From the NCBI RefSeq assembly GCF_009931435.1, contig NZ_CP043414.1: 64,000 nucleotides of DNA; one strand, 5' to 3'. The position numbers and the translations under genes were made by a program. Shown one piece after another: positions 14,657 to 53,779 of the stretch. Numbering within the stretch: the stretch's first letter is position 1; each line of letters starts with the position of its first letter. Source of the DNA: Escherichia coli. Its GTDB lineage: Bacteria > Pseudomonadota > Gammaproteobacteria > Enterobacterales > Enterobacteriaceae. The notes beneath the pieces were generated by a model. It was not told the origin of the DNA, did not search any database, and saw only the letters and a list, made by a program, of their open reading frames with translations.

Positions 14657-15892
14657 CTACAACGTTACCGGGTGTTCTTTCTCTCCCTTCTTAAACTTCA
14701 CTTCCCCGAGATCAATACAACCAACCGGGCAAACATGACCACAAAGCAGACAACCAACGCACTTCTCGGTATTACAATGCGGTGTGCGCGTTTTCTCGCT
14801 CCATTCCATCGCCTGGTGACCGCCGTCGTAACAGGAAATATAACAGCGTCCACAGCCAACACATTTATCGAGATTGATATGGGGATAGACGATATAGCTA
14901 CGGTCTAAATCTTCCGCCGGGACAATATTGTGATTCGCCAGACCTACCATCTCCTGCAACGAATCAAATCCCTGATCGGCGAGATAATGCGATAACCCGC
15001 TTGCCATATCTTCCACTATCCGATACCCGTACTGCATAATGCCGGTGGTCACCTGTAACGTTGCTGCGCCGAGCAATAAAAACTCTGCTGCATCTTCCCA
15101 GGTTTCAATACCGCCGATACCGCTAATCGGGAAATCGCGCAGCTCTGGATGGGTGCGCATTTGCTGAATAAAGCGTAGGGCGATCGGTTTTACCGCTTTA
15201 CCGGAATATCCGGAAATACTCGATTTACCGTTAACGATCGGCATACCAATTTTCTGATTAAGATCGATATTGGTGATGGATTTAACGGTATTAATCGCCG
15301 CAATGCCATCTGCGCCGCCGCGCTTCGCAGCCAGCGCCACTTCGCACATATCACCGATATTCGGCGTCATCTTCGCCAGCATCGGCAGCGTAGAACCACG
15401 TTTCACTGCCCGACAATATTTTTCTACCAGCTCCGGGCTTTGCCCGACATCACTACCCATCGCATGAGAAGTCATTTGCGGACAGGAGAAGTTACACTCG
15501 ATCATATCCGCACCAGCTTCTTGCACTAGCCGCGCCAGATCCTCCCACTGCTGTTCATTTTCGCCCATGATCGAAGCTATCAATACTTTGTCCGGATAAT
15601 CTTCTTTCAGCCGACGCAGGGCGGCCAGATTCTCCTCCAGAGGATGTTCGGCAATCTGCTCCATATTTTTGAAGCCGATAAAACCGGTATCTTCTTTCAC
15701 CAGATGATCAAAACGTGGTGAGACTTCGTTGGCGATAAAAAAGCCGATCGTTTTAAATACCACGCCACCCCAGCCCGTGTCGTAGGCTTTGGCGCACATC
15801 TCATAGCAATTGCCTACCGGCGAAGAAGAGAGGCAGAACGGGTTGGGAAACTTCACGCCGCAAAAGGTAATCGAAAGATCTTTCGTTAACAT
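14657..15892 (-). CDS. preA: NAD-dependent dihydropyrimidine dehydrogenase subunit PreA (dihydroorotate dehydrogenase-like + 4Fe-4S ferredoxin domains)
   Basis: N-terminus [19 protein letters not shown]; C-terminal CxxCxxCxxxCP ferredoxin motifs; start overlaps the end of preT. Confidence 0.9.
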
Positions 15893-19575: not shown

Positions 19576-20702
<1,127 letters not shown>

Positions 20703-20796
20703 TTAATTCGTAAAACGTGCTACCGATCACATTAAGAATTCTCAGCATAGTTGAATTACAGGGAAGTAACATCGGGCGAGTGCCCAGTTCAGCACA

Positions 20797-21705
20797 CTAA
20801 TTCTGCTGTAAAAAGTGCAGAAACTGACTTAAAGCATAAGAAGGCGTTTCGTTATTACGCCAAAACACACCGACGCTGCCTTTCTGTTCAATCTTTGGCA
20901 GGTTGAGGATCACCAGTTGCCCCTGGCTGGCATAACGTTGCGCCAGGCGTAATGACAAAATAGAGATCATATTGCTGCTTTGTAACAGGTTGGTACTGAC
21001 GTTCATCGACGCCGACTCAATCGTGTTTTCTGGCAGCATCACGCCGTGGTCTACCAGCGCATTATCAATGCTGATGCGGATGGGGGTACCTGTCGGCCAG
21101 ACTATCCACCGCCAGTTAGCAAGATCATTCCAGCTGAGGGTGGCGTATTTCGCCAGTGGATGCTCAGGACGGGCGACAAAGCATACCGGCTCGGTGTAGA
21201 GCACGCGATAATTCAGCGGCAACTGCAACGCGCGACCGCCAATTCGCCCAACCACCACATCGACAGAACCTGCCAACAGATCTTGCAGCAATGGGGTCAT
21301 CACCTTCTCTTCGATATTCAGGTGTAGAGTTGGCATCTCCTTGAGCAAATGCAAAATCGCCTGGGATACGCAGTCAGTGGCGACGGGAGAACAGCCAATT
21401 TTCAGACTGCCGACCAGTCCACCTTGTTTAAAGCGAGCCAGTTCATATTGCGATCTTTCCATGTCATTGATTAACCGTTGGGCATGTTGCAATAACAATT
21501 TGCCGCCTTCGGTCGGACGAAGCCCTTTGCTGTGCCGCTCAAAAAGTGTGAGTCCGATCTCATCTTCCAGTTGTGACAACCATTTCGAAAGCGCGGGTTG
21601 GGTGATATTCATCATCCGTGCGACATGGGTTAGATTGCCCTGTTCACCCAGCGCCACCAGCATTTGCAGGTGATGTAGTTTTAGTTTTTGCGCCCAGTTC
21701 GCCAT
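20797..21705 (-). CDS. LysR-type transcriptional regulator of the gentisate cluster (MhbR-like)
   Basis: N-terminal HTH (LTHVARMMNITQPALSKWLSQLE); strong RBS tggagg 9 nt upstream of the ATG at 21705; divergent from the transporter gene. Confidence 0.85.
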   Translation of the reverse strand: MANWAQKLKLHHLQMLVALGEQGNLTHVARMMNITQPALSKWLSQLEDEIGLTLFERHSKGLRPTEGGKLLLQHAQRLINDMERSQYELARFKQGGLVGSLKIGCSPVATDCVSQAILHLLKEMPTLHLNIEEKVMTPLLQDLLAGSVDVVVGRIGGRALQLPLNYRVLYTEPVCFVARPEHPLAKYATLSWNDLANWRWIVWPTGTPIRISIDNALVDHGVMLPENTIESASMNVSTNLLQSSNMISILSLRLAQRYASQGQLVILNLPKIEQKGSVGVFWRNNETPSYALSQFLHFLQQN

Positions 21706-21831
21706 TTGCCATAACCTCCAGGTTATCTCTCTGCCCGAAATGCCATTGTACATCTCATCTCTTTAATCACATTATCGCAACATATACAAAACAAAAGAAA
21801 CATCTACCTTACCTGCACTGAGGCATTTACT

Positions 21832-23190
21832 ATGACTCAACGACGTGATTTACAAGCACTTATCGATGCCGCTCCGGTCGGCAAGATGCAGTGGCGCGTT
21901 ATCATCTGCTGTTTTCTGGTGGTAATGCTCGATGGTTTTGACACCGCGGCTATCGGCTTTATCGCCCCTGATATTCGCACTCACTGGCAGCTCACCGCAG
22001 GCGATCTCGCCCCGCTTTTTGGTGCGGGTCTGCTGGGATTAACCGCAGGCGCACTGCTTTGTGGCCCGTTGTCCGATCGCTTTGGTCGCAAGCGGGTGAT
22101 TGAGCTGTGCGTCTTTTTGTTTGGCGCGTTAAGCCTCGCCTCGGCTTTCTCACCGGATCTGCAAACGCTGGTCTTCCTGCGCTTTCTCACCGGCCTGGGT
22201 CTGGGCGGCGCGATGCCGAACACCATCACCATGACCTCGGAGTATCTGCCTGCCCGCCGCCGCGGCGCGCTGGTGACGCTGATGTTTTGCGGCTTTACGC
22301 TGGGTTCGGCGTTTGGCGGGATTGTCAGTGCGCAGCTGGTGCCGGTGATTGGCTGGCACGGCATTCTGGTGTTGGGGGGCGTGTTACCGCTGATGCTGTT
22401 TGTCGCACTGCTGGTAGTTCTGCCGGAATCGCCACGCTGGCAGGTGCGCCGCCAGCTACCGCAGGCGGTGATTGCGAAAACCGTCAGCGCCATCACCCGC
22501 GAGCGTTATGTCGATACCCACTTTTATCTCATTGAATCAGCCTCCGTTACAAAAGGCAGCATTCGTCAACTGTTTATGGGACGTCAGTTACCCATTACGT
22601 TGATGTTGTGGGTAGTGTTCTTTATGAGCCTGCTGATTATTTACCTGCTCTCAAGCTGGATGCCAACGCTGTTGAACCATCGCGGCATAGACCTGCAACA
22701 CGCGTCCTGGGTCACCGCCGCGTTCCAGATTGGCGGTACGTTGGGCGCGCTGGCGCTGGGCGTGCTGATGGATAAGTTCAATCCTTTCCGCGTGCTGGCG
22801 CTGAGCTATGCCGTAGGCGCTGTATGCATCGTGATGATTGGCTTAAGCCAGGATGGATTATGGCTGATGGCGCTGGCGATTTTCGGCACCGGCATTGGCA
22901 TTAGCGGATCTCAGGTGGGGTTGAACGCGTTGACCGCAACGCTCTACCCAACGCAAAGCCGCGCCACGGGCGTGAGCTGGTCAAACGCCGTAGGCCGCTG
23001 CGGCGCGATTGTCGGCTCGCTTTCTGGCGGCCTGATGATGGCGATGAATTTCTCTTTTGACACCCTGTTTTTCATTATCGCTGTGCCCGCGGCGATCAGT
23101 GCGGTGATGTTAAGCCTGCTGATCACCGTGGTTCGCCAGTCGACCTCTGTCCCTGACTCACTGCCTCGCGCAGGCGTTGTGAACGAATAA
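21832..23190 (+). CDS. MFS aromatic acid:H+ symporter (3-hydroxybenzoate transporter MhbT-like)
   Basis: 452-aa ORF, 12 predicted transmembrane segments, MFS motif [11 protein letters not shown]. Confidence 0.85.
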
Positions 23191-23201
23191 GGAGCATCCT
23201 A

Positions 23202-24230
23202 ATGACTGATAACAATCAAAAAAGCCGCGAGCAATTTTATCAGCATATTTCCGGGCAAAACCTGACCCCGCTGTGGGAGTCACTGCACCACCTGGTGCCG
23301 AAAACGCCCAACGCTAACTGTGCGCCAGCGTACTGGAATTATCAGGAGATCCGCCCGCTGCTGCTGGAGAGCGGCAGCCTGATTGGCGCGAAAGAAGCTG
23401 TGCGTCGTGTGCTGGTACTGGAAAACCCGGCGCTGCGCGGGCAGTCTTCCATTACCGCGACTTTATATGCCGGTTTGCAACTGATCATGCCGGGCGAAGT
23501 GGCACCGAGTCATCGTCATAATCAGTCGGCGCTGCGTTTTATTGTTGAAGGCAAAGGGGCATTTACCGCCGTTGATGGCGAACGCACGCCAATGAATGAG
23601 GGCGATTTTATCCTGACCCCACAATGGCGCTGGCACGATCACGGTAACCCTGGCGACGAACCGGTTATCTGGCTCGATGGACTGGATCTGCCATTAGTGA
23701 ACACTCTGGGCTGCGGTTTTGCCGAAGATTACCCGAAAGAGCAACAACCGGTAACGCGTAAAGAGGGGGATTATCTGCCGCGTTATGCCGCCAATATGTT
23801 GCCGCTGCGCCATCAGACGGGTAACTCCTCACCGATCTTTAACTATCGTTATGACCGTAGCCGCGAAGTGCTGCACGATTTAACCCGCCTGGGCGATGCC
23901 GACGAGTGGGATGGCTACAAAATGCGCTATGTCAACCCGGTCACCGGCGGCTATCCGATGCCGTCGATGGGCGCCTTCCTGCAACTGCTACCGAAAGGGT
24001 TCGCCTCCCGCGTGGCGCGTACCACTGACAGCACTATCTACCATGTAGTGGAAGGTAGCGGACAAGTCACCATCGGCAATGAAATCTTCACCTTTAGTGC
24101 AAAAGATATCTTTGTGGTGCCGACCTGGCACGGCGTGTCATTCCAGACTACGCAAGATACCGTTTTATTCAGTTTTTCGGACAGACCGGTACAAGAAGCC
24201 CTGGGGCTGTTCCGCGAAGCGCGTTATTAA
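23202..24230 (+). CDS. Gentisate 1,2-dioxygenase (bicupin)
   Basis: 342-aa ORF; cupin His motifs ([10 protein letters not shown]...WRWHDHGN) match the recalled gentisate dioxygenase family. Confidence 0.85.
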
Positions 24231-24245
24231 TTTGGGAGAGAGAAA

Positions 24246-24947
24246 ATGACTCAATATGTATTCGAACCACAAGCGCCCGTTACCGTACCGGTTGTTGGCA
24301 GTGATGAACAATTCCCCGTGCGCCGCGTTTACTGCGTTGGGCGTAACTATGCCGCCCACGCCCGCGAAATGGGCTTTGATCCGGATCGTGAACCCCCCTT
24401 CTTCTTCTGCAAACCAGCAGATGCCGTTGTTCCGGTCGCCGCTGGCGAAACGCTGGCGCTGCCGTATCCGGCGCAGACCGATAACTATCATTACGAAATT
24501 GAACTGGTGGTGGCGATTGGTAAAAAGGGCAGCGATATCCCACTGGAAAAGGCCCATGAATATGTCTGGGGTTATGCCACAGGCCTTGATATGACGCGCC
24601 GGGACCGTCAAATGGAAATGCGTCAGATGGGCCGCCCGTGGGAAATCGGCAAAGCATTTGATCTCTCGGCCCCCATCGCACCGCTGCACAAAGCCAGCGA
24701 AACCGGCGGTATTGATAACGCACCAATCTGGTTACAGGTAAACGGTGAAGATCACCAGCGCAGCGATATTCGGCATTTGATCTGGTCGGTGAATGAAACC
24801 ATCAGCTACCTGTCAGGCTTCTTTGAGCTGCAACCGGGCGATCTGATCTTCACTGGTACGCCAGAAGGGGTGGGCCCGGTAGTGAAAGGTGATGTGATCA
24901 CGGGCAACGTCGAGGGCTTAACCCCTATCGCGGTGAAGATTGTCTGA
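24246..24947 (+). CDS. Fumarylpyruvate hydrolase (FAH family)
   Basis: 233-aa ORF with fumarylacetoacetate hydrolase-family blocks ([21 protein letters not shown]). Confidence 0.8.
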
Positions 24948-24955
24948 GGTGCATG

Positions 24956-25600
24956 ATGAAGCTGTACAGTTTTTTTAATAGTTCAGCATCGTACCGGGTA
25001 CGCATTGCGCTGGCGCTGAAAGGCATTAATTACCAGACCGAAGGGGTGAATATCCGTATTGGTCAGCAAAATGAACTGGCCTATCGGCGGATGAATCCTG
25101 TCGGGCTGGTGCCGACGCTGCTGACTGACGAGGGCGAGTCACTCGGTCAGTCGCTGGCGATTATTGACTGGCTGGATCGTCACTACCCGCAAGTTCCGCT
25201 GGTGCCGCAGGAAGAACCGGCCCGCAATAAGGTGCTGGAAATTGTCTATGCCATCGCCTGTGATATTCATCCATTGAATAACCTGCGCGTGCTGCGCTAC
25301 CTGACCGAAGAGCTGAATGTCAGTGAAGAAGAGAAAAAACGCTGGTATGCGCACTGGATCCAGCAAGGGTTAAGCGCGGTGGAACAGCTACTGCGCCAGA
25401 GCCAGTCGGGGCAATTTTGTGTGGGTGAGACGCCGACGCTGGCAGACTGCTGCCTTGTTCCGCAGTGGGCGAACGCGCTACGTATGAACTGCGATCTGAG
25501 TGGATATCCGCGCTGCAAAGCGGTGTACGACGCCTGCACACAACTGCCAGCGTTCATTGCCGCAGCGCCAGAAAATCAACAAGATAAAATTTCAGCCTGA
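24956..25600 (+). CDS. Maleylpyruvate isomerase (GST zeta / maleylacetoacetate isomerase family)
   Basis: N-terminus MKLYSFFNSSASYRVRIALALKGI typical of zeta-class GST; second ATG chosen for RBS spacing. Confidence 0.8.
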   Translation: MKLYSFFNSSASYRVRIALALKGINYQTEGVNIRIGQQNELAYRRMNPVGLVPTLLTDEGESLGQSLAIIDWLDRHYPQVPLVPQEEPARNKVLEIVYAIACDIHPLNNLRVLRYLTEELNVSEEEKKRWYAHWIQQGLSAVEQLLRQSQSGQFCVGETPTLADCCLVPQWANALRMNCDLSGYPRCKAVYDACTQLPAFIAAAPENQQDKISA

Positions 25601-25614
25601 CCAGGAGAACCATA

Positions 25615-26808
25615 ATGACTAAAGTGACACGCGCAGTAATTGTGGGAGGCGGGATCGGCGGTGCGGCAACTGCGCTGTCACTGGCCCGCCAGGGGATCAA
25701 AGTGGTGCTGCTGGAAAAGGCGCATGAGATCGGTGAGATTGGCGCAGGTATCCAGTTGGGGCCAAATGCGTTTTCGGCGTTGGATAGTCTTGGTGTTGGC
25801 GAAATCGCCCGCCAACGTGCAGTATTCACCGATCACATCACCATGATGGACGCGGTGAACGCCGAAGAAGTGGTGCGTATTGAAACCGGGCAGGCCTTTC
25901 GTGACCATTTCGGCGGCCCTTACGCGGTGATCCACCGCGTTGATATTCATGCCTCGGTGTGGGAAGCGGTACTGACGCATCCGAACGTGGAGTATCACAC
26001 CTCCACAAACGTCGTTGATATTCGCGAGACGCCGGACGATGTCACCGTTTTCGACGATCGAGGTAATAGCTGGAGCGGCGATATTTTGATTGGCTGTGAT
26101 GGCGTGAAGTCAGTGGTGCGCCAGAGCTTATTAGGCGATGCGCCGCGCGTCACCGGTCATGTGGTCTACCGTGCGGTTATCGATTGTGCGGATATGCCGG
26201 AAGATTTACGTATTAATGCGCCGGTATTGTGGGCGGGTCCGCACTGTCACCTGGTGCATTATCCTTTGCGCGGCGGCAAGCAGTATAACCTGGTGGTGAC
26301 ATTCCACAGTCGCCACCAGGAAGAGTGGGGCGTGAAGGATGGCAGTAAAGAGGAAGTGCTTTCCTATTTTGAAGGCATTCACCCGCGTCCTCGCCAGATG
26401 CTGGATAAACCGACGTCATGGCGACGCTGGTCAACGGCCGATCGTGAACCGGTAGGGAAATGGGGGACTAACCGCATTACGCTGGTGGGCGATGCGGCCC
26501 ATCCGGTGGCGCAGTATATGGCACAAGGTGCCTGTATGGCGCTGGAAGATGCAGTCACGCTGGGTAAGGCGCTGGCGCAGTGTGAGGGTGATGCGGCGCA
26601 AGCTTTTGCGCTGTATGAGTCGGTACGTATTCCGCGTACCGCGCGCATCGTCTGGTCGACCCGTGAAATGGGGCGGGTTTATCACGCCGCAGGGGTAGAA
26701 CGTCAGGTACGTAACCTGCTGTGGAAAGGGAAATCGCAGGCAGAGTTTTATCGCGGCATGGAGTGGCTGTACGGCTGGAAAGAAGATAACTGTCTGCAAC
26801 CACGCTGA
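25615..26808 (+). CDS. FAD-dependent aromatic monooxygenase (3-hydroxybenzoate 6-hydroxylase-like)
   Basis: N-terminal GGGIGG FAD-binding fold and GDAAHP motif; final gene of the gentisate cluster. Confidence 0.85.
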   Translation: MTKVTRAVIVGGGIGGAATALSLARQGIKVVLLEKAHEIGEIGAGIQLGPNAFSALDSLGVGEIARQRAVFTDHITMMDAVNAEEVVRIETGQAFRDHFGGPYAVIHRVDIHASVWEAVLTHPNVEYHTSTNVVDIRETPDDVTVFDDRGNSWSGDILIGCDGVKSVVRQSLLGDAPRVTGHVVYRAVIDCADMPEDLRINAPVLWAGPHCHLVHYPLRGGKQYNLVVTFHSRHQEEWGVKDGSKEEVLSYFEGIHPRPRQMLDKPTSWRRWSTADREPVGKWGTNRITLVGDAAHPVAQYMAQGACMALEDAVTLGKALAQCEGDAAQAFALYESVRIPRTARIVWSTREMGRVYHAAGVERQVRNLLWKGKSQAEFYRGMEWLYGWKEDNCLQPR

Positions 26809-27915: not shown

Positions 27916-27960
27916 GAAACCATAGTGATGTTTTTTGACAATGTCTTAGCTCTTTATCAA

Positions 27961-28200
27961 TAGGCCGCACGGTTGTTTGGTGGCGTCAAAATCGCCGAGG
28001 CGTTCCCTGAAGGCCGGGGCAGCCCACATGGATGTGGGCTGAGGGCGCGTTTTACAGGGATGTTACCTCGCGCCCGACCCGGTAGCCGTAAGGGATAAGC
28101 CGAGGGCACCGCGCAGCGGCGATTTTGTTCGCCAGAGCCCGGGGGTGCAGGGGGCGGCGGCGACTGGTCGCCCCTTGCGCGCTCCTTGCGCTAGTGATTA
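27961..28200. other. GC-rich non-coding element with long-range inverted repeats and a perfect internal palindrome
   Basis: tggcgtcaaaatcgccg (27983-27999) pairs with cggcgattttgttcgcca (28118-28135); palindrome gcccacatggatgtgggc at 28022-28039; no ORF of 60 aa or more. Confidence 0.3.
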
Positions 28201-28287
28201 TATGAAGCAATGCACATGACAGGAGCGCAACAGGATGAGAGACTGAAATATTCTCGTTATTTTCGGATCTGATGACGTTAATTAATT

Positions 28288-28371
28288 TTAAAATATCATC
28301 TTAAATACGCCAGTCACCACCAGTAGTCCAATCAGGAAAATAATCAATACAGCCCAGAGTATAATTTTCAT
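28288..28371 (-). CDS. yohP: Small membrane protein YohP (27 aa, MKIILWAVLIIFLIGLLVVTGVFKMIF)
   Basis: Hand-translated minus-strand ORF identical to my recollection of YohP; single transmembrane helix. Confidence 0.7.
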   Translation of the reverse strand: MKIILWAVLIIFLIGLLVVTGVFKMIF

Positions 28372-28594
28372 TGGCGTTCCTTTATTTGTGAGTGTCGAAT
28401 AAGTATAGGAAAAAACGAAGCCCTTTGCCGTTACTCATAAGTGATTAAGATAAATCGGAGAATATCATTCACTTACTGTATATTTTTCTGAATATGTCGT
28501 TTTATTGCCACTGATGTATTGCCACGCGAAACTAAAAAATATATTGCATCACACGGTAATCTCCGCGCACCTTTTCTTACCTGACTATTCCTCC

Positions 28595-30031
28595 ATGAAT
28601 CGTGATTCCTTTTACCCAGCCATCGCCTGTTTTCCTCTGTTACTGATGCTGGCCGGGTGTGCACCTATGCATGAAACCCGCCAGGCGTTAAGCCAGCAAA
28701 CACCCGCTGCGCAAGTTGACACCGCATTACCCACGGCGCTGAAAAATGGTTGGCCAGACAGCCAATGGTGGCTGGAGTATCACGATAATCAACTTACTTC
28801 ATTAATTAACAATGCACTGCAGAACGCACCGGATATGCAGGTGGCTGAACAGCGCATTCAGCTGGCTGAAACCCAGGCGAAGGCAGTTGCCACTCAGGAT
28901 GGCCCTCAGATCGATTTTTCTGCGGATATGGAGCGGCAAAAAATGTCGGCAGAAGGGCTAATGGGGCCGTTTGCTCTGAACGATCCTGCCGCAGGTACGA
29001 CCGGTCCGTGGTACACCAATGGTACTTTTGGCTTAACGGCGGGCTGGCATCTTGATATTTGGGGAAAGAATCGGGCGGAGGTTACTGCTCGCCTCGGTAC
29101 GGTTAAAGCACGGGCGGCGGAACGCGAGCAAACCCGCCAATTGCTGGCTGGCAGCGTAGCCCGCCTGTACTGGGAGTGGCAAACCCAGGCAGCGTTAAAC
29201 ACTGTTTTGCAGCAAATCGAAAAAGAGCAGAACACCATTATCGCGACCGATCGCCAGCTATATCAGAACGGGATTACTTCTTCAGTTGAAGGTGTGGAAA
29301 CCGATATTAATGCCAGCAAGACCCGGCAGCAGCTCAACGATGTCGTGGGAAAAATGAAAATTATTGAGGCACGGTTAAGCGCACTTACAAATCACCAGAC
29401 AAAGGCATTGAAGCTTAATCCGGTCGCGTTGCCGAAAGTGGCAAGCCAGCTTCCTGATGAACTGGGGTACTCCTTACTGGCCCGGCGGGCAGATTTGCAG
29501 GCGGCGCACTGGTACGTTGAGTCATCGCTAAGCACCATTGATGCGGCAAAAGCGGCATTTTATCCTGACATCAACCTGATGGCCTTCCTGCAACAGGATG
29601 CGTTGCACTTAAGCGATTTGTTCCGTCATTCCGCGCAGCAAATGGGCGTTACGGCAGGCCTGACGCTACCCATTTTCGATAGTGGTCGTCTTAACGCCAA
29701 CCTGGATATCGCGAAAGCCGAAAGCAACTTGTCGATCGCCAGCTACAACAAAGCGGTGGTTGAAGCGGTGAATGATGTGGCGCGGGCTGCCAGTCAGGTT
29801 CAGACATTGGCCGAGAAAAACCTGCATCAGGCGCAAATTGAACGCGATGCCTTACGTGTGGTAGGTCTTGCACAGGCGCGCTTTAACGCGGGCATCATTG
29901 CCGGTTCCCGCGTCAGCGAAGCCAGAATCCCGGCGCTGCGTGAGCGTGCCAATGGCCTGTTATTGCAAGGGCAGTTGCTGGATGCCTCCGTTCAACTAAC
30001 CGGGGCGCTGGGCGGGGGGTACAAACGTTGA
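28595..30031 (+). CDS. mdtQ: Outer membrane efflux lipoprotein, NodT/OprM family (MdtQ), apparently intact
   Basis: 478-aa frame from MNRDSFYPAIACFPLLLMLAGC (lipobox LAGC) with no internal stops. Confidence 0.85.
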   Translation: MNRDSFYPAIACFPLLLMLAGCAPMHETRQALSQQTPAAQVDTALPTALKNGWPDSQWWLEYHDNQLTSLINNALQNAPDMQVAEQRIQLAETQAKAVATQDGPQIDFSADMERQKMSAEGLMGPFALNDPAAGTTGPWYTNGTFGLTAGWHLDIWGKNRAEVTARLGTVKARAAEREQTRQLLAGSVARLYWEWQTQAALNTVLQQIEKEQNTIIATDRQLYQNGITSSVEGVETDINASKTRQQLNDVVGKMKIIEARLSALTNHQTKALKLNPVALPKVASQLPDELGYSLLARRADLQAAHWYVESSLSTIDAAKAAFYPDINLMAFLQQDALHLSDLFRHSAQQMGVTAGLTLPIFDSGRLNANLDIAKAESNLSIASYNKAVVEAVNDVARAASQVQTLAEKNLHQAQIERDALRVVGLAQARFNAGIIAGSRVSEARIPALRERANGLLLQGQLLDASVQLTGALGGGYKR

Positions 30032-30083
30032 TGATATGCGCCTTCTATACTTAACGTTTATTCAGCGTTAAGTGGAGAACTCG

Positions 30084-30845
30084 ATGGCACAGGTCGCGAT
30101 TATTACCGCTTCCGATTCGGGGATCGGCAAAGAGTGCGCGTTATTACTGGCGCAGCAGGGTTTTGATATTGGTATTACCTGGCACTCAGATGAAGAAGGG
30201 GCAAAAGATACCGCGCGTGAGGTGGTTAGCCACGGCGTACGTGCGGAGATGGTGCAGCTCGATCTCGGTAAACTGCCAGAGGGGGCACTGGCGCTGGAGA
30301 AACTTATTCAACGGCTGGGGCGCATCGATGTGCTCGTGAATAATGCGGGCACAATGACCAAAGCACCGTTTCTTGATATGGCTTTCGATGAGTGGCGCAA
30401 GATTTTTACCGTTGATGTTGATGGTGCATTTTTATGCTCGCAAATTGCGGCCCGCCAGATGGTGAAACAAGGGCAGGGCGGTCGCATCATCAACATTACG
30501 TCGGTACATGAGCATACGCCGCTGCCGGATGCCAGCGCCTATACAGCCGCTAAACATGCACTCGGTGGGCTAACCAAAGCGATGGCGCTGGAGCTGGTCA
30601 GGCATAAGATTTTGGTGAATGCAGTCGCGCCTGGGGCTATCGCCACGCCAATGAATGGCATGGATGACGGCGACGTGAAGCCCGACGAGGAGCCTTCGAT
30701 TCCCCTGCGGCGTTTCGGCGCAACGCATGAGATTGCCAGCCTGGTGGCGTGGTTATGCTCTGAAGGCGCAAATTACACCACCGGGCAGTCGTTAATTGTC
30801 GATGGTGGCTTTATGCTGGCGAATCCGCAGTTCAACCCAGAATAG
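30084..30845 (+). CDS. yohF: Short-chain dehydrogenase/reductase YohF
   Basis: N-terminus MAQVAIITASDSGIGKE (Rossmann TASxxGIG) and NNAG motif. Confidence 0.9.
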   Translation: MAQVAIITASDSGIGKECALLLAQQGFDIGITWHSDEEGAKDTAREVVSHGVRAEMVQLDLGKLPEGALALEKLIQRLGRIDVLVNNAGTMTKAPFLDMAFDEWRKIFTVDVDGAFLCSQIAARQMVKQGQGGRIINITSVHEHTPLPDASAYTAAKHALGGLTKAMALELVRHKILVNAVAPGAIATPMNGMDDGDVKPDEEPSIPLRRFGATHEIASLVAWLCSEGANYTTGQSLIVDGGFMLANPQFNPE

Positions 30846-30886
30846 CGCAGTGAGGTGCGTGGTTGTTTCAATGGGTAATCTTTGGT

Positions 30887-30966
30887 AGGCATGATAAGAC
30901 GTGCAAGCGTCGCATCAGGCATGGTGCGACGGATGTCGGATGCGGCGCAAACGCCTTATTCTAGGC
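30887..30966. repeat. BIME/REP cluster
   Basis: Multiple gcatcaggc/ggatgcggcg REP cores between convergent yohF and yohD. Confidence 0.5.
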
Positions 30967-30973
30967 AATGGTT

Positions 30974-31552
30974 TTACGCCTGATCATCCGGCTTTTTCTT
31001 CCCGCGTCGTTTCAGCCACCAGCGCACGCCAACCACCAGAACCACGACCAGAATCAACCAGACCCAGTGCTTCAAATGCTGGTCGAGATTGTGCAACCAC
31101 GGCGCAATCACCTGACCACCAGCATAACCGATAGTGGTAAAAATCAACGCCCAGGCAAATGCGCCGAGAATATTCAGCGGCAGAAAGATTTTCGGCGGCA
31201 GCTGGCTGGCACCAATCAGCGTCGGGCCAATGACCCGAAAGCCATACATAAAACGCGTACCAATGACAAACAGATACGGATGGCGTTGGATAAGTTTCTG
31301 CGCCCGCTCAATTTTATCCTGATGTTTCGAGAAACGGCGTAATAGCTTGCCGCCAAAGCGCCGCCCGCACAGATAAAGCACCTGGTCGCCAATCATGCCG
31401 CCAAGCGCCACAGAAAGTACCACCAGCGGGAACTTTAATAGTCCCTGATGTGCCGCAACGCCTCCCAGCAAAGTCACGGTTTCACCTTCCGCCAGGCTAC
31501 CGATCACCAGCGCGGCATAACCATATTGTGAGATGAGTGTATTGAGATCCAT
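30974..31552 (-). CDS. yohD: DedA-family inner membrane protein YohD
   Basis: 192-aa product starting MDLNTLISQYGYAALVIGSLAEGE. Confidence 0.9.
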   Translation of the reverse strand: MDLNTLISQYGYAALVIGSLAEGETVTLLGGVAAHQGLLKFPLVVLSVALGGMIGDQVLYLCGRRFGGKLLRRFSKHQDKIERAQKLIQRHPYLFVIGTRFMYGFRVIGPTLIGASQLPPKIFLPLNILGAFAWALIFTTIGYAGGQVIAPWLHNLDQHLKHWVWLILVVVLVVGVRWWLKRRGKKKPDDQA

Positions 31553-31721
31553 AGGCCCGTCTGTCTCCCTTTGGTTGCTTGTAAGCATACACCCTGTGAA
31601 TCATTCACGCTGAAAAAGGACGCTCATCAGACGGTGCAAATTCTATGAATGCACAAAAAATAATCACAAGCTGACTTATACTTGAACTGTCAGGTTCATG
31701 AACTCACAACAAGGGGGCGGT

Positions 31722-32309
31722 ATGAGCCATGTCTGGGGACTGTTTTCCCATCCCGATCGTGAAATGCAGGTGATTAATCGCGAAAACGAAACGATTTCTC
31801 ATCACTACACCCACCACGTTTTGCTGATGGCGGCAATTCCGGTGATTTGCGCCTTCATTGGCACCACGCAAATTGGCTGGAATTTTGGCGATGGCACTAT
31901 CCTGAAGTTATCCTGGTTCACCGGACTGGCGCTGGCCGTCTTGTTTTATGGCGTTATGCTGGCTGGGGTCGCGGTGATGGGGCGGGTCATTTGGTGGATG
32001 GCACGCAATTACCCGCAGCGTCCGTCGCTTGCGCACTGTATGGTCTTCGCGGGCTACGTTGCGACGCCGCTGTTTTTAAGCGGTCTGGTGGCGCTTTACC
32101 CGCTGGTCTGGTTGTGTGCGCTGGTCGGCACGGTGGCGCTGTTTTACACCGGCTACCTGCTTTACCTCGGTATTCCAAGCTTCCTGAATATCAACAAAGA
32201 GGAAGGCCTTAGCTTCTCCAGTTCGACGCTGGCGATTGGCGTGCTGGTACTGGAAGTGCTGCTCGCCCTTACCGTTATACTATGGGGTTACGGTTATCGT
32301 TTGTTCTAG
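31722..32309 (+). CDS. yohC: Yip1-family inner membrane protein YohC
   Basis: 195-aa product starting MSHVWGLFSHPDREMQ. Confidence 0.85.
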   Translation: MSHVWGLFSHPDREMQVINRENETISHHYTHHVLLMAAIPVICAFIGTTQIGWNFGDGTILKLSWFTGLALAVLFYGVMLAGVAVMGRVIWWMARNYPQRPSLAHCMVFAGYVATPLFLSGLVALYPLVWLCALVGTVALFYTGYLLYLGIPSFLNINKEEGLSFSSSTLAIGVLVLEVLLALTVILWGYGYRLF

Positions 32310-32482
32310 AAAGTTCTTTTGTGTTGCATTGCTGGCGTAAATGTCAGCAATGCAGCATTTCCTCACGATTCTCCTTTGACGATCGCACTTTTTGCTCGTT
32401 ATGATGGCGTCGCTAGCCTCAGTAAATCCTTACTCCGGCGGTGCGCAACCCGTGCGCGTGAACCACTATCTGAATGCTCATC

Positions 32483-33415
32483 ATGCCGAAATTTCGAGTT
32501 TCTTTATTTAGCCTGGCCCTGATGCTGGCTGTGCCTTTTGCACCACAGGCCGTTGCGAAAACGGCAGCCGCTACCACCGCTTCACAGCCGGAAATTGCCT
32601 CCGGTAGCGCGATGATTGTTGATCTGAATACCAACAAAGTGATCTATTCGAACCACCCGGATTTGGTGCGTCCGATTGCGTCTATCAGTAAATTAATGAC
32701 CGCGATGGTTGTGCTGGATGCACGATTGCCGCTGGATGAAAAACTGAAAGTGGATATCAGCCAGACGCCGGAGATGAAAGGGGTCTATTCGCGCGTACGA
32801 CTGAACAGCGAAATCAGCCGTAAAGAGATGCTGTTGCTGGCGCTGATGTCTTCAGAAAACCGCGCGGCGGCAAGCCTTGCGCACCATTATCCCGGTGGTT
32901 ACAAAGCCTTTATTAAGGCGATGAATGCGAAAGCGAAATCGCTCGGAATGAACAACACGCGCTTTGTTGAACCGACCGGATTGTCGGTGCATAACGTTTC
33001 AACTGCCCGTGACTTAACCAAACTGCTCATTGCCAGCAAACAATATCCGTTGATTGGTCAGTTAAGTACTACCAGGGAAGATATGGCAACCTTCTCTAAC
33101 CCGACGTATACGCTGCCGTTCCGCAATACTAACCATCTGGTGTATCGCGATAACTGGAATATTCAGTTAACCAAAACCGGCTTTACCAATGCGGCGGGCC
33201 ATTGTCTGGTGATGCGTACGGTTATCAATAATAAACCGGTGGCGCTGGTAGTGATGGATGCGTTTGGCAAATATACCCATTTTGCCGATGCCAGCCGCCT
33301 GCGTACCTGGATTGAAACCGGTAAAGTGATGCCTGTTCCGGCAGCAGCGTTGAGCTATAAAAAACAAAAAGCCGCCCAGATGGCGGCGGCGGGGCAGACG
33401 GCGCAGAACGATTAA
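32483..33415 (+). CDS. pbpG: D-alanyl-D-alanine endopeptidase PBP7
   Basis: Signal peptide [25 protein letters not shown]; SISKLMT (SxxK) active-site motif. Confidence 0.9.
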
Positions 33416-33416
33416 G

Positions 33417-33590
33417 GGTAGGCAGGATAAGGCGTTTACGCCGCATCAGGCATTCGGAGCACAATGCCTGATGCGATGCTTGCGCATCTTATCAGGCCTA
33501 CAAACGTGACGCGTCCGTAGGCAGGATAAGGCGTTCACGCCGCATCCGGCATTCGGTGCACGATGCCTGATGCGATGCTTCTATTTGCAT
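33417..33590. repeat. BIME: at least three REP units
   Basis: Repeated ggataaggcgtt(t/c)acgccgcatc and gcctgatgcgatgct cores seen directly. Confidence 0.6.
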
Positions 33591-46479: not shown

Positions 46480-48471
46480 TTACTCAAGCAAGGTTAATAA
46501 TTGTTCGCAAAGCAAAACGCAGTTATTCATTGCTTCTCCCCGTGCCTCGCCTTCTGTATTACGAAATTGTCCCAACACATGTGCCAGCCGATAAAAACCC
46601 ATCGCGGTGAGTTCATTGACCAGCAACTCTGACTGACTAATGGCACTCTGTTCCTGATAGCGCCAGCCATTATGGAGCAGTTGAATAAGCAACGCCTGAC
46701 AGCGCATCAGTAACTGATGAGTGGTAGACGGTACAGGCAGAACGCTGGCAGAAGGTAGCGGTGTCACAGGCGCAGTTTCTGCGTCCAGTGCCCAGGCGCG
46801 GGTTTGCGTCATCATTACTCGTGGTTCCAGTGTCAATTGCCCCTCAGCAAAATTGATAAACCCAGAAACCAGACTAACGGGATCTTCTGTTTGTTGTAAT
46901 AGAGCTGCCATGCGTTCAACAGCAAAGGGCGCACTGGCTGAAGCTGGCAGTGATAACGTCAGCACATTATCTTCACCTTCGCCACTGATTACCTGCGCAT
47001 CCAGTGTCTGCCGACTGCTGTCCCAACCGAGTGAAATGCACTCTTCTACTGGCAGAATAAATAAGTTATCGACCTGGTTAAGCGGTCGTATGGCGGCTGG
47101 CGGACGTTGGCGTAAATATTCCCGCAAAGCCACAATGCCCGGCTGGCGCAGTGGTGCGCTCAACATTTGCCAGGCATCAGGCGACAGCGGAACAACACTG
47201 CTTAAGCGGTTGCGGGTAGCTAATAGCAACTCGCCATCGGCACTGCGTTTTGCTGCTTGTGAAACAATTTGCCCACCCGCCAGCGCGCCAGCCTGAAAAC
47301 TAAACAGCCGCCGTTTTGCCGCTGGAGAGTTATCCTGTTCACTTCTCGGCCAACTGCGCGAAAGATGCAAAATACTGCCGGTGTCGGGATCGGTGAACCA
47401 GATGCGTAAACCATACCGCTCATTATCCTGCCAGCAACGCATACCTAGTGACACCAGCCGCAAATGATCAAGCTTTGCTTCGCCAGCAATGCCTGCGCCA
47501 ACGACCGTGCGCCACGGTATGGGCGGTACTTCACCGACACTGTCACGTCGCGCTATCTCTTGTGCACTGTTCAAGCGACTGGTTAACGCCGCAAGCTGGC
47601 ACAAGCATTTTCCGGCATGATAGTGGCTGGCGCGGGCGTGGAAGGCATCAACGCTTGCCCGTAGCTGTCGTAGTGATTCACTTACCCAACGCCAGTTGCA
47701 GCGTTCCGCCGCTTGCTGCGCGCGGCTGAAAGCAGCCTCGTAATGAATAAGCGGCTGGCTGATCCCGCCCAGCCATAATGCCTGACTTAATTGCTGAACA
47801 TAGTGACGACATGCTTTACCTTCGTCGCTGGAAAACGGATCGTCAGATGATGTGACGTGTTCACTGTGCATCTGCCAGATCAAATGAGTAAATTCTGCTT
47901 GTTGATTTTTGGCCTCGACGAAGGCCTGCACAGCCAGTACTACGTGTTCACACAGCGTTCCTTCAATACAGTCACAACGGGCGAAACGAATGCTGCTGCG
48001 GGAATAAAAACGCACATCGCTCATCGGTAAGCGGGCAGAGGGAATTTCGCCCGGGGTGCAGAACAACTCAATGGTGATGCCTTTAGCGACCAGCGCCTGC
48101 GCGCGTTTGCGCGTGGTATTGGGCAGGGTAGCCAGTTCTTCCTGCCAGATTGCCGGATCCCACTCTTCTTCTTTTTCCGTAGGCTGGGCGGTGGCACAAA
48201 GTCGTTGATAACTTAACACCAGCATCACGCGATGACGGCACATGCCGCTGGCCCCGCAGCTGCATTGAGCCTCTTTCAGTGCCTGACTGTTCGCCAGCCG
48301 GGTACGGACACCGTCACTGAACGTGGCGATTAAAGCGCCGTTCTCATGGCAGATTTCCGGGACATTGCCATTTTCCAGTTCCTTAAGGCTGCGCTTCACA
48401 AAACCAGCATTGCTTAACGCCGTCAGGGCCTGCGGTGTCAGTTCTAATAATTCCGGACGTAGTGAATTCAT
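46480..48471 (-). CDS. yehQ: YehQ: protein with two SWIM-type zinc fingers (CxC-x5-C-x-H)
   Basis: Motifs CSCGASGMCRH and CDCIEGTLCEH seen in the translation; ATG overlaps the yehP stop. Confidence 0.8.
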   Translation of the reverse strand: MNSLRPELLELTPQALTALSNAGFVKRSLKELENGNVPEICHENGALIATFSDGVRTRLANSQALKEAQCSCGASGMCRHRVMLVLSYQRLCATAQPTEKEEEWDPAIWQEELATLPNTTRKRAQALVAKGITIELFCTPGEIPSARLPMSDVRFYSRSSIRFARCDCIEGTLCEHVVLAVQAFVEAKNQQAEFTHLIWQMHSEHVTSSDDPFSSDEGKACRHYVQQLSQALWLGGISQPLIHYEAAFSRAQQAAERCNWRWVSESLRQLRASVDAFHARASHYHAGKCLCQLAALTSRLNSAQEIARRDSVGEVPPIPWRTVVGAGIAGEAKLDHLRLVSLGMRCWQDNERYGLRIWFTDPDTGSILHLSRSWPRSEQDNSPAAKRRLFSFQAGALAGGQIVSQAAKRSADGELLLATRNRLSSVVPLSPDAWQMLSAPLRQPGIVALREYLRQRPPAAIRPLNQVDNLFILPVEECISLGWDSSRQTLDAQVISGEGEDNVLTLSLPASASAPFAVERMAALLQQTEDPVSLVSGFINFAEGQLTLEPRVMMTQTRAWALDAETAPVTPLPSASVLPVPSTTHQLLMRCQALLIQLLHNGWRYQEQSAISQSELLVNELTAMGFYRLAHVLGQFRNTEGEARGEAMNNCVLLCEQLLTLLE

Positions 48472-53086: not shown

Positions 53087-53169
53087 AAAAAAACCTGCTG
53101 GTGAGGCAGGTTCTTTTATTTACTACTTTCAGGCCTAACACCACGGCCTGTGCAACATCGTGTTCCAAC
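53087..53169 (-). ncRNA. orzO: Predicted antitoxin sRNA (OrzO-like), about 83 nt
   Basis: Minus-strand -10 TATAAT at 53176-53181 and -35 TTGCAA at 53199-53204; intrinsic terminator hairpin plus U7 at 53087-53111; 5' region (53151-53169) is near-complementary to the zorO 5' UTR (53317-53335). Boundaries inferred. Confidence 0.4.
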
Positions 53170-53683: not shown

Positions 53684-53779
53684 TAGATCGCAGAAAATAA
53701 AAGAACCTGCTGGTGAGGCAGGTTCTTTTATTTACTACAGTGACGCTAACTTGCTGATTGTGCAACATTTCGTACCAAC
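53684..53779 (-). ncRNA. orzP: Predicted antitoxin sRNA, second copy (OrzP-like)
   Basis: Same architecture as copy 1: -10 at 53786-53791, shared -35 at 53809-53814, terminator hairpin 53694-53714; pairing region 53762-53779 matches the zorP leader 53928-53945. Confidence 0.4.

Follow-up and report, generated by a model that had tools for sequence, protein, structure and literature searches.

Does the mdtQ (yohG) gene of this Escherichia coli encode a complete outer membrane channel where K-12 carries a broken copy, and, if it does, which of the two states is the unusual one? We addressed this question in a stretch of 64,000 nucleotides (the window), following up a first-pass annotation made from the sequence alone, and we also looked for the pump that such a channel could serve. 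The reading that we hold with high confidence is that the window carries an ordinary, functional-looking wild-type allele of mdtQ, that the product is a chromosomally encoded orphan outer membrane factor (OMF) lipoprotein of the NodT type, and that K-12 is the exception.

The reading frame and identity of mdtQ

The mdtQ coding sequence occupies 28595–30031 on the plus strand, where the open reading frame list and the sequence give an ATG start, 478 codons and a TGA stop. The frame had been described at first as uninterrupted for 478 codons from the motif LLMLAGC to the stop, and this description holds, as the frame is open from the ATG at 28595 to the TGA at 30031 and LLMLAGC corresponds to residues 16–22. 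No frameshift or internal stop was found in 28595–30031 when it was aligned with intact alleles of 13 other complete genomes, which have the same length and align without gaps, and this removes the concern that a lesion had been overlooked. An alternative in-frame TTG at 28505 would give an ORF of 508 aa and is used by some annotators or depositors. The ATG start of the 478-aa protein agrees with RefSeq, and the family model is aligned from its position 1.

The protein was compared with the NCBIfam model of the MdtQ equivalog (NF008524), for which the curated cutoff is 650 bits and a full-length match is required. The score is 1011.5 bits, with residues 1–478 aligned to model positions 1–478. 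Because this match runs end to end and the Pfam OEP family is matched in two stretches, 28595–30031 is not a chance ORF. The protein belongs to the MdtQ equivalog based on both its score and its chromosomal position, in line with the name mdtQ/yohG proposed at the outset. Of 5426 complete E. coli genomes, 5422 have the gene annotated at the corresponding position, and the exact protein sequence of the window is present in NCBI under the name MdtQ on 13 public contigs. The presence of an intact mdtQ in the window is already known and ordinary, and standard annotation names the gene correctly.

A single-base slip in the K-12 gene

That K-12 carries a disrupted copy had been stated at the outset, and the records agree. 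In NC_000913.3 (MG1655) mdtQ (b2139) is recorded as a pseudogene of 1436 nt, and the JM109 copy, which is identical to that of MG1655, is flagged as 'frameshifted' by RefSeq. The alignment with K-12 that had been proposed for locating the lesion places it precisely. Compared both with the window and with the intact allele of a goat isolate, the K-12 gene (JM109) shows exactly one gap column, in the A5 homopolymer at 28742–28746 (plus strand, codons K50–N51), where K-12 has A4. The loss of this base shifts the frame after Lys50 and leaves a product of 69 aa. The remainder of the K-12 gene is open in the shifted frame and, once repaired, its product differs from that of the window at 8 amino acids. 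The K-12 lesion is a single homopolymer slip, and it is the sole lesion in the MG1655/JM109 copy. The A4 run in both strains also rules out that the K-12 gene is intact.

The K-12 pseudogene and the window gene are alike in occupying the orthologous locus, with about 96% DNA identity. They differ in that b2139 has A4 and a stop after 69 residues, whereas the window retains A5 at 28742–28746 and is not a pseudogene of the K-12 type. In our reading, mdtQ was lost recently in K-12 by a 1-bp slip in the A5 run, a lesion that the window does not carry. A length of 435 aa is found for many E. coli entries under the name MdtQ (P0028–P0035), one of which occurs on 43 contigs, including a 4.8-Mb contig. 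These entries are probably N-terminally shortened gene calls on frameshifted copies of the K-12 type.

The lesion bears on a phenotype from the literature, for which the original susceptibility study is reportedly that of Sulavik et al. 2001. According to a review, a yohG null mutant in a K-12-era study was more susceptible to puromycin, acriflavine and tetraphenylarsonium (PMC11762307). This oddity is hard to reconcile with a gene that is frameshifted at codon 50 in K-12. Either the mdtQ locus of the strain used differed from that of K-12, or the mutation acted indirectly, for example through polarity on yohF.

Distribution of the intact gene and selection on it

We evaluated how common the two states are using short probes. 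An 80-nt K-12 probe centred on the A4 run is matched exactly in 355 of 5411 complete E. coli genomes and, among the 60 of these 355 matches listed, most are named K-12 laboratory strains (MG1655, DH5alpha, DH1, C600, J53, NCM3722 and others). The same probe repaired to A5 (an 81-mer) is matched exactly in 3055 genomes, and the others depart from it by point substitutions. Of 39 full-length matches sampled across the ranking, 36 span the 1701 nt of the query and 2, including JM109, are one base shorter. An extra base in strain HCP30S3_I2 was considered as an independent frameshift and rejected, as it lies outside the coding sequence and the gene is annotated as intact.

All 13 of the non-K-12 genomes sampled carry an intact mdtQ of 1437 nt. 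These are isolates from goat, pig, turkey, avian, mollusc and wastewater sources and from human blood, stool and urine, together with a laboratory-evolved non-K-12 strain, an STEC strain, O157:H7 and BL21(DE3). The intact E. coli genes (O157:H7, BL21(DE3) and most isolates) occupy the same locus as that of the window (yohP-mdtQ-yohF-yohD-yohC-pbpG), and their products, like that of the window, are 478 aa long, with 97–99% protein identity.

The dN/dS ratio is 0.02–0.07 in six pairwise comparisons among four mdtQ alleles, and 25 of the 478 residues vary across 15 alleles. The orthologs of Salmonella and Citrobacter, drawn from a set of close relatives at 79% identity or more, are intact, with lengths of 478–479 aa and identities of 79–81%. 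In Salmonella, the gene order around mdtQ is that of the window. Judged from these patterns of substitution and conservation, mdtQ has been under long-term purifying selection. A 2025 review likewise describes mdtQ as core-conserved despite its pseudogene label, with a function that is not elucidated (PMC11762307). Independent truncations of mdtQ have been reported in some isolates of Salmonella Typhi and Paratyphi A (PMC9241588). Since K-12 lives without the gene and these inactivations occur, the gene can be dispensed with in some niches.

The intact gene is the ancestral, selected and already documented state; it is the norm of the species and K-12 is the exception. The original framing set an intact window gene against the K-12 pseudogene. 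That contrast is correct, but the window is not the special case, given that the K-12 probe is matched in 355 of 5411 genomes and that 13 of 13 sampled non-K-12 genomes are intact.

MdtQ as an outer membrane factor lipoprotein

The first 22 residues of MdtQ are MNRDSFYPAIACFPLLLMLAGC. The sequence reads as a lipoprotein signal peptide of residues 1–21 followed by Cys22 (28595–28660, plus strand). The lipobox, L19-A20-G21-C22, is encoded by nt 28649–28660, with the Cys22 codon at 28658–28660, and the +2 residue is Ala. Cys22 is invariant among 95 aligned family members, for which the consensus is L-x-G-C-A. Under the established rules for lipoproteins, Cys22 would be the acylated first mature residue and Ala at +2 would specify sorting to the outer membrane.

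The Pfam OEP family (PF02321) is matched at 107.4 bits in two stretches, of which the best spans residues 69–266 (first OEP repeat, 28799–29392, plus strand) and the other lies in the C-terminal half. The NodT subfamily model TIGR01845 gives 264.8 bits, above its cutoff of 210.05. MdtQ belongs to the NodT subfamily based on this score, the two OEP repeats, the lipobox cysteine and the predicted protomer fold. It does not belong to the TolC family, as TIGR01844 gives 54.8 bits relative to a cutoff of 225.15; MdtQ and E. coli TolC share 12–13% identity, and TolC is not a lipoprotein. The second-best NCBIfam match is the MdtP family (NF007390), at 349.9 bits and a cutoff of 597, so that MdtQ is not a member of it. 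On the basis of these model scores, MdtQ is a sister family of MdtP.

Comparison with MdtP (YjcP), the product of the last gene of the ytcA-mdtN-mdtO-mdtP operon, is informative because it represents the nearest paralogous family. Both proteins are NodT lipoproteins, but MdtP is encoded with its own adaptor and pump whereas MdtQ stands alone. [quoted passage not shown]

In a sequence search, approximately residues 51–477 of MdtQ matched 15 different OMF sequences with solved structures, including VceC, OprM, SilC, CusC, CmeC, MtrE, OprN and OprJ. The best match is VceC of Vibrio cholerae (1yc9, E = 4.4e-39, residues 51–477), yet the identity is only 25%. VceC is encoded with the VceAB pump, which is EmrAB-like and of the MFS type, whereas MdtQ has no adjacent pump.

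An AlphaFold2 model of MdtQ from the single sequence was all-helical, with a pLDDT of 44.6, and was discarded. Based on a 95-sequence alignment of diverse relatives, the monomer model reached a pLDDT of 89.2 and a pTM of 0.85. It has predicted beta strands at residues 105–116, 139–153, 325–336 and 348–357, and long helices forming hairpins at residues 158–224, 230–265, 365–431 and 437–471. When this model was compared with the PDB using Foldseek, VceC (1yc9) ranked first (E = 4.5e-24, TM 0.88, rmsd 3.6 Å), followed by CmeC, OprN, OprM, OprJ, CusC, SilC and MtrE, with OMFs exclusively. The top 25 matches are non-TolC OMFs with target-normalised TM of 0.78–0.90, and TolC is lower, at 0.7–0.75. 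MdtQ is thus predicted by the model to have the OMF protomer fold, with four beta strands and long antiparallel helical hairpins. The first-pass annotation had proposed a full NodT-type outer membrane factor lipoprotein, a proposal that agrees with the TIGR01845 score, the solved OMFs matched and the modelled fold.

By this account the MdtQ precursor would undergo export, receive its acyl groups on Cys22 and be carried by Lol to the outer membrane, where three copies would assemble into a 12-stranded beta-barrel with a long alpha-helical periplasmic tunnel. The tip of the tunnel would dock a periplasmic adaptor and an inner-membrane transporter, making MdtQ an exit duct for small toxic molecules. 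Trimerisation, barrel, tunnel and adaptor docking are all expected from established knowledge of the OMF family.

Candidate pump partners

Neither in the window nor in other E. coli or Salmonella does an adaptor or pump gene lie beside mdtQ; the neighbours are dusC, yohP, yohF, yohD and yohC. The gene is not part of a tripartite efflux locus, in which adaptor and transporter genes are encoded with the OMF. MdtQ is therefore an orphan OMF whose partner, if it has one, must be encoded at another locus. Since no such gene adjoins mdtQ, the assignment of a partner class draws on the neighbourhoods of paralogs.

We searched 1.84 billion cluster representatives and analyzed the neighbourhoods of the closest full-length non-orthologs, which are 35–41% identical to MdtQ. 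Nine neighbourhoods were opened. Three lie on contigs too short for a pump partner to be visible: that of an ortholog with 59% identity (P0135), which shows a downstream SDR gene alone, and two others (P0140 and P0147). Of the 8 non-ortholog neighbourhoods examined, 6 are informative, and in 5 of these 6 a FUSC gene lies directly upstream of the OMF gene. Three are operons with the order YtcA-adaptor-FUSC-OMF, and in two the FUSC gene is directly upstream on a truncated contig. One further neighbourhood has the order MFS-OMF-EmrA-type adaptor. None of the 8 contains an RND gene.

The components of the three complete operons were compared with the Mdt families. Their adaptors best match MdtN, at 376.4–478.5 bits, and reach the equivalog cutoff of 376. 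The pumps best match MdtO, at 444–714 bits, below the cutoff of 821 bits. The OMFs best match the MdtP family, and among them P0141 alone (727.8 bits) reaches the cutoff of 597. Because MdtQ is sister to MdtP and its nearest non-orthologs lie in ytcA-mdtN-mdtO-OMF operons, we infer that its partners most likely comprise an adaptor of the EmrA/AaeA type and a pump of the FUSC type (MdtO/AaeB-like) or of the MFS type, rather than an RND pump.

This bears on the label NodT/OprM-type that the gene had been given. The NodT part is correct, but OprM-type is misleading, as the nearest non-orthologs serve pumps of the MdtNO/FUSC type. It also bears on the alternative that MdtQ acts as an OprM-like substitute for TolC with RND pumps (AcrAB, AcrEF, MdtABC and others). 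MdtQ does fall in the NodT subfamily, and its model superposes on the RND-associated channels OprM, OprN, OprJ, CmeC and MtrE with TM of 0.78–0.84. However, the best match in both sequence and structure is VceC, the next-best family is MdtP, and the neighbourhoods of the closest non-orthologs hold five FUSC genes and one MFS gene and no RND gene in the 8 examined. We consider a role with RND pumps unlikely.

Among such pumps in E. coli, the obvious candidate is AaeAB, the 'relief valve' for aromatic carboxylates (p-hydroxybenzoate). In the table of a 2021 review it is given as 'AaeAB-?', with a question mark for the outer-membrane component (PMC8277102). Intact MdtQ might be the missing exit duct for a FUSC-type pump without its own OMF, chiefly AaeAB, although we regard this specific pairing as a speculative suggestion with the odds clearly against it. 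If it were true, the reliance of almost all E. coli efflux genetics on K-12, in which mdtQ is frameshifted, would explain why the pairing has escaped notice.

Upstream region, expression and yohF

The intergenic region between yohP and mdtQ (28372–28594) was evaluated with a consensus scan and by reading the sequence. It contains no sigma-70-like site on the plus strand based on the scan, and no Shine-Dalgarno motif precedes the mdtQ start, where the sequence reads ...TATTCCTCC-ATG. Rfam identified no RNA element in or adjoining mdtQ. According to the review, experimental confirmation of the mdtQ promoter is lacking (PMC11762307). Since neither a promoter consensus nor a Shine-Dalgarno motif was found upstream, expression of mdtQ may be low or conditional. 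On the far side of this region lies the divergent gene yohP, which encodes a small membrane protein (28288–28371, minus strand, with the reverse-complement ATG at 28369–28371), placed by transfer of RefSeq annotation from L002 and L003, two other E. coli records.

Downstream, the SDR oxidoreductase gene yohF (30084–30845, plus strand, annotation transfer) begins after 52 bp. No terminator-like site is present on the plus strand in this gap (30032–30083), and one is found after yohF, at 30845–30860. The adjacency of OMF and SDR genes is kept in Salmonella and beside the 59%-identical ortholog on a metagenomic contig (P0135), and yohF is the sole conserved same-strand neighbour of mdtQ. Based on this arrangement, it is possible that mdtQ and yohF are co-transcribed as a two-gene operon.

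The upstream region is also an argument for supposing that mdtQ, while intact, is effectively silent and specifies a cryptic channel, or one expressed very weakly, with no measurable contribution. The absence of both a Shine-Dalgarno motif and a sigma-70 consensus upstream fits this idea, as do the loss of mdtQ in K-12 without a recognised defect, its recurrent truncation in Salmonella Typhi and Paratyphi A (PMC9241588), and the description of its function as not elucidated (PMC11762307). Against it stand the dN/dS of 0.02–0.07 and the intact orthologs of Salmonella and Citrobacter at about 80% identity, with the same gene order in Salmonella. A gene that is never expressed would not keep such a record of long-term purifying selection, and we judge a silent mdtQ improbable.

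The allele carried by the window

The mdtQ DNA of the window is at most 97.4% identical to that of any of 5426 complete genomes and 95.3–97.2% identical to 14 sampled alleles, with the differences mostly in the 3' part. The allele is a minority one. A further E. coli assembly in the public databases (L004) matches window positions 27967–33031 at 99.94% identity and carries the same mdtQ allele. For the window as a whole, the best match to a complete genome is about 98.4%, and identity ranges from 94 to 100% per 500 bp in the usual recombination mosaic. An origin of the window outside E. coli was considered and rejected, based on this mosaic profile and on the 99.94% match of another E. coli assembly.

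Among 15 E. coli alleles, the window has four private substitutions (A93T, Q410L, W461L and I466V), all derived relative to E. albertii. That these missense changes, notably W461L, cripple the protein despite the open frame is the least credible of the alternatives: although the changes are unique and derived and the DNA is so distinct, an alignment of 95 family members shows free variation at positions 410, 461 and 466 and S, Q and T as tolerated residues at position 93, VceC has Ala and OprM has Gln at residue 461, the C-terminal motif ALGGGY is retained along with the invariant Cys22, and the allele recurs, as an identical protein on 13 public contigs and as DNA at 99.94% identity in the other assembly. 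The window gene continues to be read as an ordinary wild-type allele.

Genomic context of mdtQ

The locus order dusC-yohP-mdtQ-yohF-yohD-yohC-pbpG is the same in the window, K-12, BL21 and Salmonella, and collinearity of the window with E. coli E600003 extends over 2100–47000. Upstream of this locus, the interval between yohJ and dusC (about 19800–26800) holds genes for a LysR regulator, mhbT, gentisate 1,2-dioxygenase, a FAH-family hydrolase, maiA and 3-hydroxybenzoate 6-monooxygenase. This gentisate/3-hydroxybenzoate cluster is absent from K-12, and window positions 15000–39000 are covered to at least 80% in only 497 of 5426 complete E. coli genomes. In Salmonella, a gentisate cluster likewise lies beside dusC-yohP-mdtQ. 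Since Salmonella shares the arrangement, the cluster seems to be ancestral, with loss in the majority of E. coli.

Based on published positions, a TRIP1c repeat lies between dusC and yohP, at about 27958–28232 (PMC10888264). The L004 assembly matches the window only from 27967 onward, and its positions 1–2373, upstream of the match, carry TraB-family, tRNA_edit and DUF6896 genes in place of dusC. This break fits the TRIP1-mediated rearrangements described previously (PMC10888264). In the goat isolate (L002), which has the closest mdtQ allele, an IS110-family transposase is located between dusC and yohP, in the TRIP1c region (1362–2387 of that record).

Further from mdtQ, Rfam places a Peptidase-S11 RNA motif upstream of pbpG (32398–32478, plus strand, 72.8 bits) and naRNA4, a REP-derived nucleoid-associated RNA, at 33421–33498 (plus strand, 76.9 bits). 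Two matches to the OrzO-P antitoxin RNA on the minus strand (53087–53162 and 53699–53772, at 98.9 and 87.3 bits, respectively) point to a type I toxin-antitoxin pair, zor-orz, in tandem. The segment 47000–64000, with yehI, yehL, yehM, yehP and yehQ (DUF4132, WGR, SWIM and vWA proteins), diverges far more than the other parts of the window do. Its identity to 5398 genomes is 90–95%, with a best match of 96.8%. The collinearity with E600003 stops at 47000, and that strain has truncated SWIM and WGR pseudogenes there.

Implications

It is already published that K-12 is without one of the four TolC-like channels of E. coli. As K-12 lacks MdtQ, experiments in K-12 cannot reveal the role of MdtQ in natural isolates. 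The sole new lead from our analysis is the putative partner class, which would place MdtQ with the channels of the MdtP type that serve MdtNO/AaeAB-like pumps, and this narrows the set of pumps worth testing with an intact MdtQ.
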